A DNA stretch of 64,000 bases. Source: Escherichia coli (lineage in GTDB: Bacteria; Pseudomonadota; Gammaproteobacteria; Enterobacterales; Enterobacteriaceae). Made by a program: the position numbers. The stretch is taken from NCBI RefSeq assembly GCF_009931435.1, contig NZ_CP043414.1; one strand, given 5' to 3'. Shown here one piece after another: positions 1-6,000 of the stretch. How positions within the stretch are numbered: the first letter of the stretch is position 1; the number at the start of each line of letters is the position of its first letter.

Positions 1-3000
1 CTGAAGAAAATCCGCAACGGCGAGCCTGTGACGCAAAGCGAGCTGGATGAACTGGCTAAACTGGTGCTGATCCAGAACCCTAACGTTGATATCCGGGCAC
101 TGAAAGAGTTCTACCCGCAGGCGACCGCCAGCCTGGATAAACTATTGCGTACCATCATCGGGATGGACAGCGACGCGGTGGAAGTGCGCTTTGCTCAGTT
201 CGCCGCTGATAACAGCCTGACCAGCCAGCAATTGCGCTTCCTGTCATTGCTGAAAAACCACATTCGCGATTACGGCACCATTGAAATGCGGCAGCTCTTT
301 GAACAGCCTTTTACGCATATCCACAACGAAGGCGTTACCGGTGTGTTCCCTGATATAGAGCAGATCGCCCGCCTACAAAAGATAGTCGAAGAGCTGGGTG
401 TTGTGACCGACGCAGCAACGGTATAATACGCACATGACAAGCCCCGGCAGCGGGGCTTTTGTATTTAAAACAGGATATAAAAGCTAACAATGATCACTGG
501 TGACTTAAAAAGTAAAATCGACGGCCTGTGGGAAGATTTCTGGGTGGGTGGTATCACCAACCCGCTGACCGTAATCGAACAGATCACCTATCTAATGTAT
601 TCCCGGATGCTGGATACTCAGGAACAACGCGACGAGAAGCGTAAACAAATCGCGGGTATTGATTTTAAACCGCGTTTTGCACCAGAACAGCAGGAGTTCC
701 GTTTCAGTCACTATAGCAATCTTGGCTCGGATGAGATGATGGAAGTGGTGCGCGATGGTGTATTCCAGCATTTTCGTCAGCTCGGCCAGGCTGATGCGTC
801 GAAGGTAACGCTGCTGGGCAACTTTATGAAAGATGCCCGTCTGGAGATTGTTAAGCCTTCATTGCTGACCAAAGCGGTTGAGGTGATCAAAAACCTGCCA
901 TTGGATCGCGGCGACACCAAAGGCGACCTTTACGAATACCTGTTAAGCAAGCTGACCACTGCCGGAATCAACGGCCAGTTTCGCACACCGCGCCACATTA
1001 TCCGCACGATGGTTGAAATGATGGAGCCGAACCCCGCCCGCGGCGAGACGATTTGCGATCCGGCCTGCGGCACCGGTGGCTTTCTGGCAACCAGCTATGA
1101 ATATCTACTGGAGAAGTACAGCTCGCTGGAATCCATTCATACCGAGATTGGCACCAACGAACGTGGTGAGCTGGAAGAGCAAAAAATCTTTACCGGCGAT
1201 CTGTTGACCCCGTGGCGTAACCATGTGGATAACAATATGTTCCACGGTTACGACTTTGACACCACAATGTTACGTATCGCCGCCATGAACCTGATTATGC
1301 ACGGCGTGGAAGCGCCGGATATCCACTATCAGGACACCATGAGCCAGAGCTTCAGCACAAACTTCCCGCAGGCCAGTAAAAACGCTTTCAACCTGATTCT
1401 GGCAAACCCGCCGTTTACCGGTTCACTGGACGAAGAAGATATCGACTCCACGCTGTCGGCAATGGTGAAAACCAAAAAAACCGAACTACTGTTCCTGGCG
1501 CGTATTCTGCAAATGCTGAAAGTGGGCGGGCGCAGTGCCACTATCGTGCCGCAGGGCGTGCTGTTTGGCTCCAGTAAGGCGCACCAGTCACTTCGCAAAA
1601 CGCTGGTGGAAGATAACCAACTGGAAGCGGTGATCAACCTGCCTTCCGGCGTATTTAAACCTTACGCTGGCGTGGCGACGGCGATCCTGATCTTTACCAA
1701 AGGCGGTCAGACGGACGAGGTCTGGTTCTACGATCTGCAAAATGATGGCTACAGCCTGGATGACAAGCGTAACCCAATTAAAGACAACGACCTGCCGCAT
1801 CTGCTGGCAAGCTGGAAGCATTACCGTACTTTACGCGGGCTGCCGGTTGATAACTTTATGGGTGAGAAATTAGCCTCGTTGCTTAAACAGCAGCACCCGG
1901 AAGGGATTGATGTTGGCGTTGATTTTAAAGATCGCACGCAGGCGGCGTTTGTAGTTCCAAAAGAAGATATTGCTGCGCAGAAATACGATCTCTCTATTAA
2001 TCGTTATAACGAAGTGGTGTATCAGGCGGAGGAGTATGAAGATCCGAAGGTGATACTGAAACGATTAAAAGATCTGGAAAAAGAGATTCTGGCGGATCTG
2101 GATGAGCTGGAGGGGATGCTGTGAGTTGTCGTTATTTAAAAATTGAGGATTTTTGTAGCACCGGTAGCGGTGGAACACCCAGTAGGTCAAAGCCTGAGTA
2201 TTATGAGGGGGGAGATATCCCTTGGATTAAATCAGGAGACCTTAAAGATTCAAAAATTTATGAAGCAAATGAGTACATTACAGCCGCAGGGCTAGAAAAT
2301 AGCAGCGCGAAAATAGTTGAGAAAGACTCAATCTTAATAGCAATGTATGGAGCCACTGTTGGTCGCTTAGCAATTTTAGGAATTAATGCAGCCACGAATC
2401 AAGCTATTTGCAATATCAGGCCAGATACGACAATTGCTGATATGAAGTATCTCTATTACTTCTTGAAGAGCAAGTTCAGCTATTTTGTCGAAAATGCGGT
2501 TGGTGGGGCTCAACCTAATATTAGCCAAGGATTGATTAAGTCATTAGAAGTTCCCCTACCTTCTTTAGATGAACAAAAGCGTATCGCAGATATTCTTGAT
2601 AAAGCTGCTGGTGTATGCCAAAAACGCGAGCAAGCTATCAAACTGGCTGATGATTTTTTGCGGGCTAAGTTTCTAGAGATGTTTGGAACTCCTGCAAACA
2701 ACATACATCGTTTCCCGAAAGGAACGATTCGCGACTTGGTTGATTCAGTAAATTATGGAACTTCAGCAAAAGCCTCTATTGATTCTGGTGAATATCCTAT
2801 ATTACGGATGGGTAATATAACATATCAAGGTAGGTGGGATTTTACAGATTTAAAATATATTGATCTCAGTGTAAAAGAAAAGGATAAATATTTGGTTAAA
2901 GAAGGCGATCTTCTTTTCAATCGTACTAACAGTAAGGAACTTGTTGGTAAAACAGCTGTGTATGAAGAAGACAGGCCTATGGCATTTGCTGGATATTTAA

Positions 3001-6000
3001 TCCGCGTTAGACCTAATTCTATCGGAAATAACTACTATATTTCAGGGTATCTTAATTCCATCCATGGCAAAATCACATTGATGAATATGTGTAAAAGTAT
3101 TGTTGGCATGGCTAATATTAATGCACAGGAATTGCAGAATATAGAGATATTAATCCCACCTAAGCATCTACAAGATGAGTATGAGATTATTTATAAAAAA
3201 ATAAAAAAAGGACTAAGCATTTATGATAAAAGCGCAATGCAACTTCAACTTTTAGCATCAAACCTATCGAATAAATATTTCATGTAAGGTTCATTATGAA
3301 ATTAACTAAACTTGTACTTGAAAATTTCAGATCTGTTAGAGAGCGGCAGGAAATTGATTTTGCACCTGTAACATTACTATTGGGGCCAAACAGCGCGGGC
3401 AAGACTACTATTTTAATTGCATTATTTTATCTTCAACAAATATTAGACCGTGAGCAGTGTGATCCTATATATTTAGAAGCTATGGGGAACAGGCGCATAG
3501 ATGGATTTAGATCTCTAGTCCATAATGGGGATCTGAATAATGTAATTACTATTGGTATCGGTTTCGATCCTGAACAAACAATAGGTGTAGAATATAAAAC
3601 ATATTTAGAAGAACTTGGTGATATTTTCGATATTCATTTTATAAAAATGAAAGACATTGCAGATGAAACTGAAAAGGTTTATGTAGAATTTAAAATCGCA
3701 TGGTCACAATTGCACAGAGCAGCATATATAAAGAACTATGCTGTTTCTATAAATAATGAATTTATTGGAGAGCTAAGTAATGATGAGTATACTAAATCAT
3801 CTTTAGTAAATAGATTGAACTTTACTCATCCGTTGCTTCTTCCTATTGATTATAATTTATGGCTTGAATCTATTGATAAGGAAGGATTAGATACGATTGC
3901 CAGTGAATTTGAAATATCTTTAAATGACTTAATTCCTGGCTTAGAACGTAATAAAAGTGGTGCAACAGAGCGAGTAAAAACTGTTGATTATATATTTGAA
4001 GAAGATAAAGAAAAACCAATGTTTCCTGTTTTTTTAAAGACGAAAATTGGTGCGTTACCTCAACTGGGAAGAACTGTTGATACAAATTTGAAAGTTTTTG
4101 ATATATCCGAGCCAGTTGAGTATTTTAATCGAGATATAATCACCAGAGTGCTAACGCAAGTTTTTACTTCTCCGTTAGATAAATTAAATAATTATTTAAA
4201 GGCTAGCGTATCTATTGGACCGTTAAGAATTATACCTGATTCTTCATTTACGCCAAATCCTTATCCAGAACAAAATGGATGGTTTGATGGTACATCAGCA
4301 TGGGATAAGCTGTGTTTATCTCAACAAAATGATAGTGATTTGATTAAAAAAGTAAGTGATTGGTTTTCCAATAGAGATAAACTAAACACTAATTATAATA
4401 TATTTAGTGGAGGAGAATTTGATATAAAAACCTCCCCTCAACTTTTAGGTCTGAAAGATAATGTTTACTTCTGTAAAATAGATTCAAGCCAAATGTTATT
4501 TCCAAATCAAGTCGGTGTCGGATTAACTCAGATAGCACCTCTTATTATTGCAGCCAATATAGTTCAGGATGGATTAATTGCTATAGAGCAGCCTGAGCTA
4601 CATATTCATCCCGCTTTACAACTCGCTGTAGGTGATCTGTTTACCCAATATCCCCTTGATGTTAAAAGACCTATGTTTTTAGTCGAAACACATAGTGAGC
4701 ACATTTTGCTTCGAATTTTAAAAAGAATTAGACAAACAACGGACAATGAATTACCTGAATCAAATTACCCAGTAAAACCTGATTTTATATCAGTGATCGT
4801 TTTCGAGGATAATAATGGTTCGACTGTTACTAGGAAAATAGATATTACTGATGATGGTGACTTCAAACAAAAATGGCCCAAAGGTTTCTTCGAAGAAAGA
4901 AGGGGAGAGCTTTTTTAATGTTCTACGAATGCGCCATTTCACCAGAGGCTTTGTTTGAGATCGCAATTGATCGGAGAAATTATCGTGACTTCATAAAAGG
5001 ATTTTCTACGGGCGGTAACTTTCTCTATAGTGAATTACCAAAGCTGAAGAGAAATAAAAAACAATTGCTTGGGCTATTAAATGCTAATCATAGTGAACTT
5101 CAAAAAAAACGATTAGAGGACCTTATTATTTTTTTGAAAAATAATAAGGTTAGTAGGGTTTATGATTATGTTGGTGACATGTCATGGTCAGATAACATCT
5201 CTGCTGTAAATCGAATTGAACAATTTGATCATGTAGTGAGTTCTACTCCTTGTGATAACCTTGATGTAACTAATATAGATGATTTCTTTGGGTTAAATTA
5301 TGCTCGGCAAAAAATTGTTGCTAGAATTGCTGAGGATATGATATCTATAATCTCACGCTTATTAAAAACATCAGAGCATATTATTATAGTTGACCCATAC
5401 TTTAGTGACAAACAAAGATGGTGGAATGTATTTATTTCATTACTTAGCGTTAGTGCTAATAACTCTTATAAAAAAAATTTAAAGATAGATGTTATATTTG
5501 ATGGGAGTAAAGAAAACTCCCCAACGGTGAATTATTTGGCTAATAAGTTGAACCGCGAAAACCTTGTCTTTCCAGACGATTTTAAATTATCAGTAACATT
5601 TAAGTCTTTAACTTCTCGCGAGGGTAATGAACGTCTGCATAATAGATATGTTCTTTCTAATGTTGCTGGAGTTTGTTTCATGCATGGTTTAGATGAGGGA
5701 GAAGGAACGGATGATGTCTCAATTTTGTCGAAAGAGGGATATAATAAAAGATGGGAACATTACACTACGAATAATGTTTTTGATTTAATAGAAGAGCGTG
5801 AAGTTATATGTTAAGTATTTCCCTTACTGTTTTCAATTAAATCCTACAAACTTATTAGGACCCTTTAAAATTTATTCAACACGCCAATAAAAAATCTAAT
5901 TCTATTAATCTTGACCTGGTCTATCAAAATGATAGACCAGGCTTCTGTTATCTACATTACTTCTAGTGAAATAGCCAACCAATCGTCCCTATAAGGCAGG

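Follow-up and report, generated by a model that had tools for sequence, protein, structure and literature searches.

Type I restriction-modification (R-M) loci often carry embedded defence genes, as described under the name of 'guilt-by-embedding' (Payne et al., bioRxiv 10.1101/2024.01.29.577857). The same study includes HEC-03, composed of an ABC ATPase and a PIN protein, in which both genes are needed for protection. Passages of PMC12707154 and PMC12065111 present PrrC, from the EcoprrI Type IC locus, as a single protein combining an ATPase and an anticodon nuclease, which is held inactive by the restriction enzyme. The Menshen system comprises NsnA (a ParB-DUF262 protein with a DNA-binding domain), the ATPase NsnB and the effector NsnC, and for some NsnC proteins an architecture made of an inactive PIN domain and a 'PB-PLD1' domain has been described (PMC12065111). 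Two genes that follow hsdS of a Type I locus, encoding an ABC ATPase and a partner protein, are analysed here with respect to these systems; they lie in a stretch of 64,000 nucleotides of an Escherichia coli chromosome (assembly GCF_009931435.1, contig NZ_CP043414.1), which is called the window throughout.

The two genes resemble each of the described systems in part. As in Menshen, the first gene encodes an ABC ATPase of the OLD type that has a DUF3696 tail and a GxG signature; its Walker B motif is likewise non-canonical, with the dyad EQ instead of the EN of the Menshen type NsnB (PMC12065111), and the partner is predicted to join an inactive PIN-like N-terminal domain to a nuclease-type C-terminal domain in which, as in 'PB-PLD1', an acidic residue follows a strand and an H-x-R motif precedes another. 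However, NsnA was not found here or in the sampled relatives, and the pair is located directly after hsdS in the hsdMS operon. The published Menshen survey could not find pairs lacking NsnA because it was seeded on DUF262 proteins (PMC12065111). HEC-03 is also a two-gene combination of an ABC ATPase and a PIN-domain protein embedded in a larger defence system, but the window partner matches neither HEC nor PDC models (none of the HEC-03 models even at E<=10), contains an extra PLD-like domain, and has a PIN-like domain lacking the catalytic acidic set. HEC-03 is recognised by model matches of both proteins, and here the ATPase match is partial and the partner has none. PrrC and the Campylobacter Rlo proteins share with the pair the condition of an ABC-ATPase-type accessory effector inside a Type I hsd locus; PrrC is one protein instead of two. 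In Septu (PtuA/PtuB), PARIS (AriA/AriB) and Gabija an OLD-type ABC ATPase likewise controls a separate or fused nuclease, whereas the window effector is neither an HNH protein (PtuB) nor a Toprim/DUF4435 protein (AriB).

The embedding of defence genes in Type I loci, the pairing of an ABC ATPase with a PIN protein, the PrrC guard and the leuX hotspot have already been published. An AT-rich hsdS with exchangeable defence cargo beside Type I genes is to be expected, and the leuX-type island is a catalogued hotspot. What this locus adds is the exact position of the exchange joints and a genetic link between the cargo and one half of the specificity subunit, therefore a host that gains a new cassette can acquire an altered methylation specificity at the same time. 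Besides, a sensor-less relative of Menshen that recurs behind hsdS in distant phyla is a case for how ABC-ATPase/nuclease modules are triggered, and bears on whether restriction enzymes can act as their sensor. The explanation preferred here, to which a probability of about three in four is given, is that the step in base composition marks the border of a mobile Type I restriction island, between a conserved backbone with a guanine-plus-cytosine (GC) content of about 0.51 and an exchanged variable end, and that the cargo of this end is a two-gene Menshen relative without the DUF262 sensor NsnA.

Composition step, cargo slot and hsdS mosaic

A preliminary description of this DNA had claimed an abrupt compositional shift at the hsdM/hsdS junction, from genes of E. 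coli-like composition to an AT-rich tract ending at 5814. The shift is real. The 3' end of hsdR (1-426, + strand, truncated by the window start) has a GC content of 0.529 and a GC content at third codon positions (GC3) of 0.647, and hsdM (490-2124, +, 544 residues; PADLOC MTase_I, 6e-193) has 0.509 and 0.609. Both are indeed E. coli-like in composition, and they belong to the conserved backbone of the island, hsdM being its last gene. The values fall to 0.366 and 0.301 in hsdS (2121-3287, +, 388 residues; PADLOC Specificity_I, 6e-125), 0.329 and 0.214 in the ATPase gene (3296-4918, +, 540 residues) and 0.328 and 0.261 in the partner gene (4918-5814, +, 298 residues). The gap is mostly found at synonymous sites, since GC3 is 0.65 and 0.61 in hsdR and hsdM against 0.30, 0.21 and 0.26 in the following genes. 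The codon-usage distance B(F|C) to the core open reading frames (ORFs) of the window is 0.225 for hsdM, the core mean being 0.233 (standard deviation, sd, 0.067), and reaches 0.537, 0.640 and 0.589 for hsdS, the ATPase and the partner, that is, 4.5-6 sd off the core mean. The GC content of the whole window is 0.521 (mean of 1-kb windows 0.522, sd 0.082) and, besides the hsd tract, the sole 1-kb stretch with GC below 0.40 is found at about 36.8-37.2 kb. Maximum likelihood places the left change point after base 2225 (0.509 to the left and 0.342 to the right), with a log-likelihood ratio of 56.7 compared to 15.4 or less in 200 block shuffles, and the right one after base 6035 (ratio 45.5), coinciding with the stop codon of an integrase remnant. 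The step itself stands, although it is slightly less abrupt than claimed and its limits are other than stated: the fall begins around 200 bp inside the 3' end of hsdM, near 1900, and the tract continues beyond 5814 to 6035, with a further low-GC ORF at 6498-6866.

Low GC in hsdS was also taken as a sign of its joint acquisition with the two downstream genes, and this argument does not hold. The EcoKI locus of strain K-12, which is unrelated and carries no cassette, displays the same step (hsdM 0.548, hsdS 0.404, next gene symE 0.556). The 11 hsdS alleles inspected in this E. coli island family all have 0.33-0.39 GC regardless of the downstream content, and of 17 loci from other phyla, 15 have an hsdS with less GC than the hsdM, by 4.9 points on average. 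The step between hsdM and hsdS is therefore uninformative on co-acquisition with the ATPase pair. The composition of the pair itself does carry information: in other phyla the GC of both genes is near that of the neighbouring hsdM (mean difference 2-3 points, in either direction), so the 0.33 measured for the enterobacterial pair is the signature of a foreign source and does not characterise the family. A host-independent low GC of the pair, an idea raised by the related loci L016 and L025, was dropped in view of the native composition seen in those phyla. The AT-richness of the tract would then have two causes: hsdS is generally AT-richer than its own hsdM, and the slot behind it in E. coli always holds foreign low-GC defence genes.

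The interval between hsdS and the integrase gene serves as a cargo slot, for which five or more alternative contents were found. Counts for E. coli are megablast matches among 5426 genomes, and individual genes were examined in 11 E. coli loci and in about 15 others; the loci compared share the hsdR-hsdM backbone at 95-100% identity and differ in what lies between hsdS and the integrase. The hsdM backbone gene (MTase_I) is present in 424 of the 5426 genomes, and the ATPase pair (PADLOC PDC-M55A or NsnB, for the ATPase only) in 273, in 250 of them with at least 80% of the query covered. The remaining contents are an ATPase with an HNH protein (PDC-M01, Septu-like; 65 genomes), a SIR2 protein (PDC-S25; 42 genomes), a DEAD helicase with a hypothetical protein (weak PbeA match on the helicase; 16 genomes) and a four-gene cargo including a 5'-nucleotidase and a phosphorothioate-binding HNH protein (PDC-S08 and HNH; 17 complete), and the GC of all cargos is 0.33-0.41. 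The pair is thus an exchangeable accessory cassette, found in 273 of the 424 genomes with this hsdM and not invariably present with the backbone, and the Type I locus behaves as the shuffling hot spot that had been proposed. In E. coli the pair was never seen outside this hsd context. The same post-hsdS slot is occupied in strains MMC-J-0078 and C9 (L002, 12549-15788, and L005, 12180-15419) by an IS1-flanked segment carrying the blaOXA-244 carbapenemase gene, right after the HNH gene.

The ancestral order of the island would be hsdR, hsdM, hsdS, cargo, P4-type integrase and tRNA-Leu (leuX). leuX is a described defence hotspot of E. coli, and hotspot #37 is an integrase-anchored tRNA-Leu island with Type I systems and replaceable defence clusters (PMC12707154). 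In MS1170, AW1.7, Kosakonia cowanii and Citrobacter koseri (L007, L011, L012, L014) the integrase is intact and abuts tRNA-Leu. In contrast, the window retains only a 185-bp 3' remnant of a P4-type tyrosine integrase (6037-6221, - strand), annotated as a frameshifted integrase fragment in strains S3 and LWY24, which bounds the variable slot on the right, and its hsd module is sited inside the selC island, whereas in relatives it belongs to the tRNA-Leu island.

When loci with other cargos are aligned to the window, homology stops at 2124-2128 (the hsdM stop), returns at about 2556-2690 and appears again from 5969-6033 (the integrase stop). The approximate layout of hsdS is target recognition domain (TRD) 1 at 2121-2555, central conserved region at 2556-2690, TRD2 at 2691-3155 and C-terminal helix at 3156-3287, and its first half (TRD1) has about 0.40 GC compared to 0.33 in the second. 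As read from its sequence, the window hsdS is a mosaic: bases 1-566 are 98.9% identical to a group of genomes with HNH, SIR2 or helicase cargos, bases 436-1175 are 97.7% identical to the large group carrying the ATPase pair, and the full allele is found in 6 genomes only. When the window is compared with LWY24 there are no mismatches in 1-1868 and 13 in 1869-2064; TRD1 is unrelated, 16 mismatches follow in 2558-2636, and over 2637-6288 there are just 3. The segment 1869-2636 (+, about 770 bp) would be the footprint of a conversion patch that replaced TRD1 in an island otherwise identical to that of LWY24.

The proposal that hsdS and the two genes were acquired or exchanged as a unit is supported for the distal half of hsdS and contradicted for TRD1. 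Of 272 E. coli genomes, 269 have TRD2 contiguous with the ATPase gene, and TRD2 and the pair form a single homology block with 89% nucleotide identity in Kosakonia and 83% in Citrobacter, where the block stands beside the intact integrase and tRNA-Leu. The window TRD1, on the other hand, accompanies four different cargos, and three or more distinct TRD1s are found with the ATPase cargo; this distribution and the conversion patch led to the rejection of whole hsdS plus cargo as one unit. The tie between TRD2 and cargo is not absolute either. In the metagenomic locus L016, HsdM is 84% and TRD2 75.5% identical to the window, while the ATPase and the partner are 37% and 35% identical, therefore another joint exists at the 3' end of hsdS and cargo can be exchanged there as well. 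New Type I specificities arise via recombination in the hsdS central conserved region, and TRD shuffling is a classical result (PMC12707154 and PMC10121019, on this and on the leuX hotspot); the linkage of TRD2 with one particular cargo is a detail that was not found described.

Slot contents and TRDs would be exchanged by homologous recombination in the flanking conserved sequence, with crossovers in the 3' end of hsdM or the hsdS start, in the hsdS central conserved region, in the 3' end of hsdS and in the integrase gene. TRD2 would hitch-hike with the cargo and TRD1 assort freely because little conserved sequence separates TRD2 from the cargo.

Identity of the ATPase and its partner

The pair appears, from gene spacing, to be packed within the hsdM-hsdS operon: the GTG start codon of hsdS overlaps the hsdM stop (GTGA), the gap between hsdS and the ATPase gene is 8 nt, and the partner ATG overlaps the ATPase stop by 1 nt (TAATG). 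The ATPase matches the Pfam families AAA_15, AAA_21 and AAA_23, with a weak match of the C-terminal tail to DUF3696 (E 0.0077), and among the PADLOC models, which date from 2023, PDC-M55A (1e-40), NsnB (3e-37) and HEC-03B (7e-25, residues 395-538 only). Its N-terminal region matches the PADLOC models of PtuA, AriA and GajA and the structures 8ee4 and 6p74. The motifs are GPNSAGKT (Walker A), IEQPELHIHP (Walker B) and GVG (signature). A full-length alignment (2e-109) with the ATPase from a GmrSD_N(DUF262)-ATPase-effector locus gives 35% identity, and the third gene of that locus encodes a homologue of the partner with 31% identity. No literature was found under the name 'PDC-M55'.

All NsnB homologues compared have E-Q instead of the usual Walker B D-E dyad (EQPELH, residues around 425-436). 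This change normally slows hydrolysis in ABC ATPases, so ATP binding may outweigh turnover.

In the partner no Pfam domain was found, and no Toprim, HNH or DUF4276-type match was obtained with Pfam, PADLOC or NCBIfam. Its classification as a nuclease of one of these types was rejected for this reason and for its predicted PIN-like and PLD-like folds. Membership of a PADLOC candidate family was rejected as well, the sole match being NsnC (E 0.003); ten relatives of the partner gave weak matches to NsnC or to the BrxL C-terminus only. By exhaustive search the family comprises 811 representatives at 50% identity, all of about 300 residues, whereas a word-indexed search retrieved enterobacterial relatives only, with at least 74% identity. 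An AlphaFold2 model built from 86 sequences (mean confidence score, pLDDT, 97) gives a PIN-like fold for the N-terminal domain, which keeps only one or two acidic positions and is, as modelled, inactive. The C-terminal domain has a PLD/MIT_C-like phosphodiesterase fold in which, among the conserved residues, D159-P160 follows a strand and H241-N-R243 precedes one, and its motif is HxR(x)4N, compared to the canonical HxK(x)4D of Nuc, NucT, BfiI and Zucchini. Because of the motifs and model matches of the ATPase, the architecture of the partner and the homologues of both in a DUF262-ATPase-effector locus, the pair is assigned to NsnB and NsnC.

The third Menshen component is missing. A search for DUF262-like ORFs (phmmer, E<=10) and for the DGQQR motif gave nothing in the 64-kb window and in L001, L003, L012 and L014, while the positive control L024 was found, and no DUF262-like ORF is present in the 12 kb upstream of hsdR in S3 or in the Kosakonia and Citrobacter loci. 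As phmmer detection of DUF262 from a single seed is possibly insensitive, 18 unlabelled ORFs that precede NsnB in related loci, in most cases as its immediate neighbour, were also scanned with Pfam, and none of them matched GmrSD_N, in contrast to the control. Therefore, NsnB and NsnC are both recognised and the ParB-DUF262 protein that Menshen encodes with its ATPase is not.

By analogy with the published Menshen model, Septu and PARIS, NsnB oligomers may hold NsnC through its PIN-like domain, as suggested by an AlphaFold3 model in PMC12065111. An infection cue would lead to ATP binding or hydrolysis, by which the PLD-like phosphodiesterase would be licensed to cut nucleic acid, and this cleavage would stop the phage or the infected cell.

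Distribution of the pair and alternative explanations

Relatives of the partner were sought in one genome per species with a pattern derived from 14 sequences, HNRY[VIL][LI][TS][DEN][LI][GA], a sample biased to relatives that keep the motif, and neighbours were labelled by phmmer with few seeds. The scan gave 53 loci, 39 of them classifiable. hsdS is directly upstream of NsnB on the same strand, usually with hsdR-hsdM before it, in 19 of the 39 loci, and within 6 kb in 8 more; the other 12 lack hsd genes in the surrounding 6 kb or so, which means that the pair can exist alone, and neighbours in these contexts include sigma-54 activators and gyrB. The hsdS-adjacent pairs are distributed among Gammaproteobacteria, Desulfobacterota, Myxococcota, Planctomycetota, Acidobacteriota, Binatota and Schekmanbacteria, with EcoEI-like and more distant HsdR types. 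In loci with HsdM identities of 0.77-0.93, those of NsnB are 0.36-0.73 and those of NsnC 0.29-0.85, thus the gene order persists while its parts are replaced. HsdM and NsnC identities are uncorrelated (Spearman 0.03) and HsdM and NsnB identities correlate at 0.58; this co-divergence was discarded as evidence of functional coupling, being inseparable from host relatedness. Elsewhere the neighbours of the pair include McrBC, pPIWI, TIR and NERD helicases.

Some variants of the arrangement were observed in the same sample. Certain hsdS-adjacent NsnB homologues are 797-817 residues long, with an insertion of about 250 residues halfway along the ATPase (L025/L026, 4608-7001), and a NERD/UvrD helicase gene directly follows the NsnC homologue in L024 and L025. 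In L070 (836-8771), from a metagenome-assembled genome of Latescibacterota, three tandem NsnB-like ATPases are each followed by a protein of about 340 residues, which suggests local duplication or stacking of such pairs.

Part of this evidence fits a different account, in which the pair is an accessory of the Type I enzyme and the part of NsnA is taken by the restriction complex, or by the inhibition of this complex through anti-restriction proteins, in the way that PrrC guards EcoprrI. We regard it as possible, although doubtful. The order hsdR-hsdM-hsdS-NsnB-NsnC on one strand in nearly half of the classifiable loci, its maintenance while NsnB and NsnC are replaced by distant homologues, the tight packing in one operon, the failure to find NsnA and the confinement of the E. 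coli pair to the hsd context all speak for it. Nevertheless, the 12 loci without a nearby hsd gene, some beside housekeeping genes such as sigma-54 activators and gyrB, show that the pair can exist alone, and the sharing of its slot with unrelated systems (SIR2, Septu-like) suggests a generic cargo site; besides, the hsdM-NsnB correlation may reflect host relatedness only, and the locus sample is biased by its search pattern. In short, recurrence behind hsdS and the loss of NsnA favour a cue received via the Type I enzyme, against which solitary pairs and unrelated slot contents have to be set. A broader formulation, which we hold to be more doubtful, is that the NsnB/NsnC pairs of this subfamily constitute a widespread and undescribed accessory arm of Type I systems that has dispensed with NsnA and uses the restriction complex as trigger. 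If this were true, the trigger would be the complex engaging DNA or being inhibited by anti-restriction proteins, and the result would be a PrrC-like second line built from Menshen parts. It is rather unlikely that the AT-richness is kept by selection or mutation bias (nucleoid-protein silencing, or relaxed codon selection at low expression) and says nothing about transfer. In its favour, an hsdS richer in AT than hsdM is also seen in unrelated systems and in other phyla, and the enterobacterial block has stayed at about 0.33 GC through 11-17% nucleotide divergence with no drift towards host composition. However, NsnB and NsnC follow the composition of the neighbouring hsdM in other hosts, which leaves the family without intrinsic AT bias, and presence/absence polymorphism and mosaic breakpoints show transfer directly.

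The entry of hsdS, ATPase and partner together from a low-GC donor, as a three-gene unit, agrees with the continuity of the low-GC tract and with the contiguity of TRD2 and the pair in E. coli, Kosakonia and Citrobacter, but the independence of TRD1, the divergent pair behind a conserved TRD2 in L016, and low-GC hsdS genes irrespective of cargo in EcoKI and most other loci make it improbable. Least credible of all is a toxin-antitoxin-like addiction module that stabilises the island and plays no part in phage defence. A nuclease-like effector with a controlling nucleoside triphosphatase on a mobile island would suit this role, and the related HEC-03 is toxic when induced (bioRxiv 10.1101/2024.01.29.577857); yet both protein families belong to validated or candidate defence systems, the other slot contents are all defence candidates, and the neighbours listed above for other genomes (McrBC, pPIWI, TIR and NERD helicases) point the same way. 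The mobile island with a sensor-less Menshen cargo thus remains the preferred explanation, and several points weigh against it. The DUF3696 match is weak. Catalysis by the modelled partner is unproven, given its HxR(x)4N motif, and its closest small relative, the MIT_C domain of MITD1, is no known nuclease. The E. coli census consists of megablast counts and 11 inspected loci instead of a genome-by-genome listing, recombination between flanking homologous sequences is deduced from mosaic breakpoints and not from direct observation, and the explanation does not account for the general AT-richness of hsdS. Defence activity, trigger, substrate and the contact between ATPase and effector are all inferred.

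Other features of the window

The R-M system is Type IB-like: hsdR, hsdM and hsdS are present, and the orthologous HsdR proteins of Kosakonia and Citrobacter contain HSDR_N, ResIII and EcoEI_R_C domains. The full hsdR gene encodes 1137 residues as annotated in strain S3. In the gap between hsdR and hsdM there is a terminator-like hairpin (439-458, +) with an 8-bp stem, including 6 GC pairs, followed by TTGTATTT, which is a consensus match only. Another hairpin with a 12-bp stem and a weak T tail was found in a consensus scan at 5915-5941 (+), about 100 nt past the partner gene, and probably marks the end of the hsdM-hsdS-nsnB-nsnC transcription unit. In a promoter scan, sites were no more numerous than in shuffled sequence.

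The region upstream of hsdR (L001, 1-12000; strains S3 and LWY24) is variable too, so the backbone has variable cargo on both flanks. The versions seen among relatives contain dGTPase, thymidylate synthase, XRE and MazG-like genes; WYL-GTPase genes; ImmA/IrrE with a 'beta family protein'; a TIR protein; pap fimbrial genes; or cdiA. Past the integrase remnant, the ORF at 6498-6866 (122 residues, GC 0.35, GC3 0.27) is annotated as hypothetical in S3, is absent from LWY24 and has no PADLOC or NCBIfam match. Next come an outer-membrane protein gene of Tia/Hek type (7084-7830) and a gene for an EptA-like phosphoethanolamine transferase (8015-9517), with intermediate GC (0.47-0.48), whose version in strain 1410D004 is 87% identical.

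Further downstream, direct IS1 copies at 9648-10416 and 35029-35796 bracket about 24.6 kb that are missing from S3 and have a GC of 0.60-0.68. The bracketed segment includes blaTEM (11640-12500, -), Tn3-family transposase genes (13369-16407 and 30535-33501), merA (17116-18810), an IS21 transposase gene (22846-24369), aadA1 within 27289-28299 (-) and intI1 (28229-29242), and the whole (9648-35796) resembles a Tn21/Tn3-type resistance region, bounded by IS1, that has inserted into the selC island. The end of this island is found at 36034-39067, with genes for a TPR protein (36034-37077, -) and a P4-type integrase (37489-38673, -), and tRNA-Sec (38973-39067, -).

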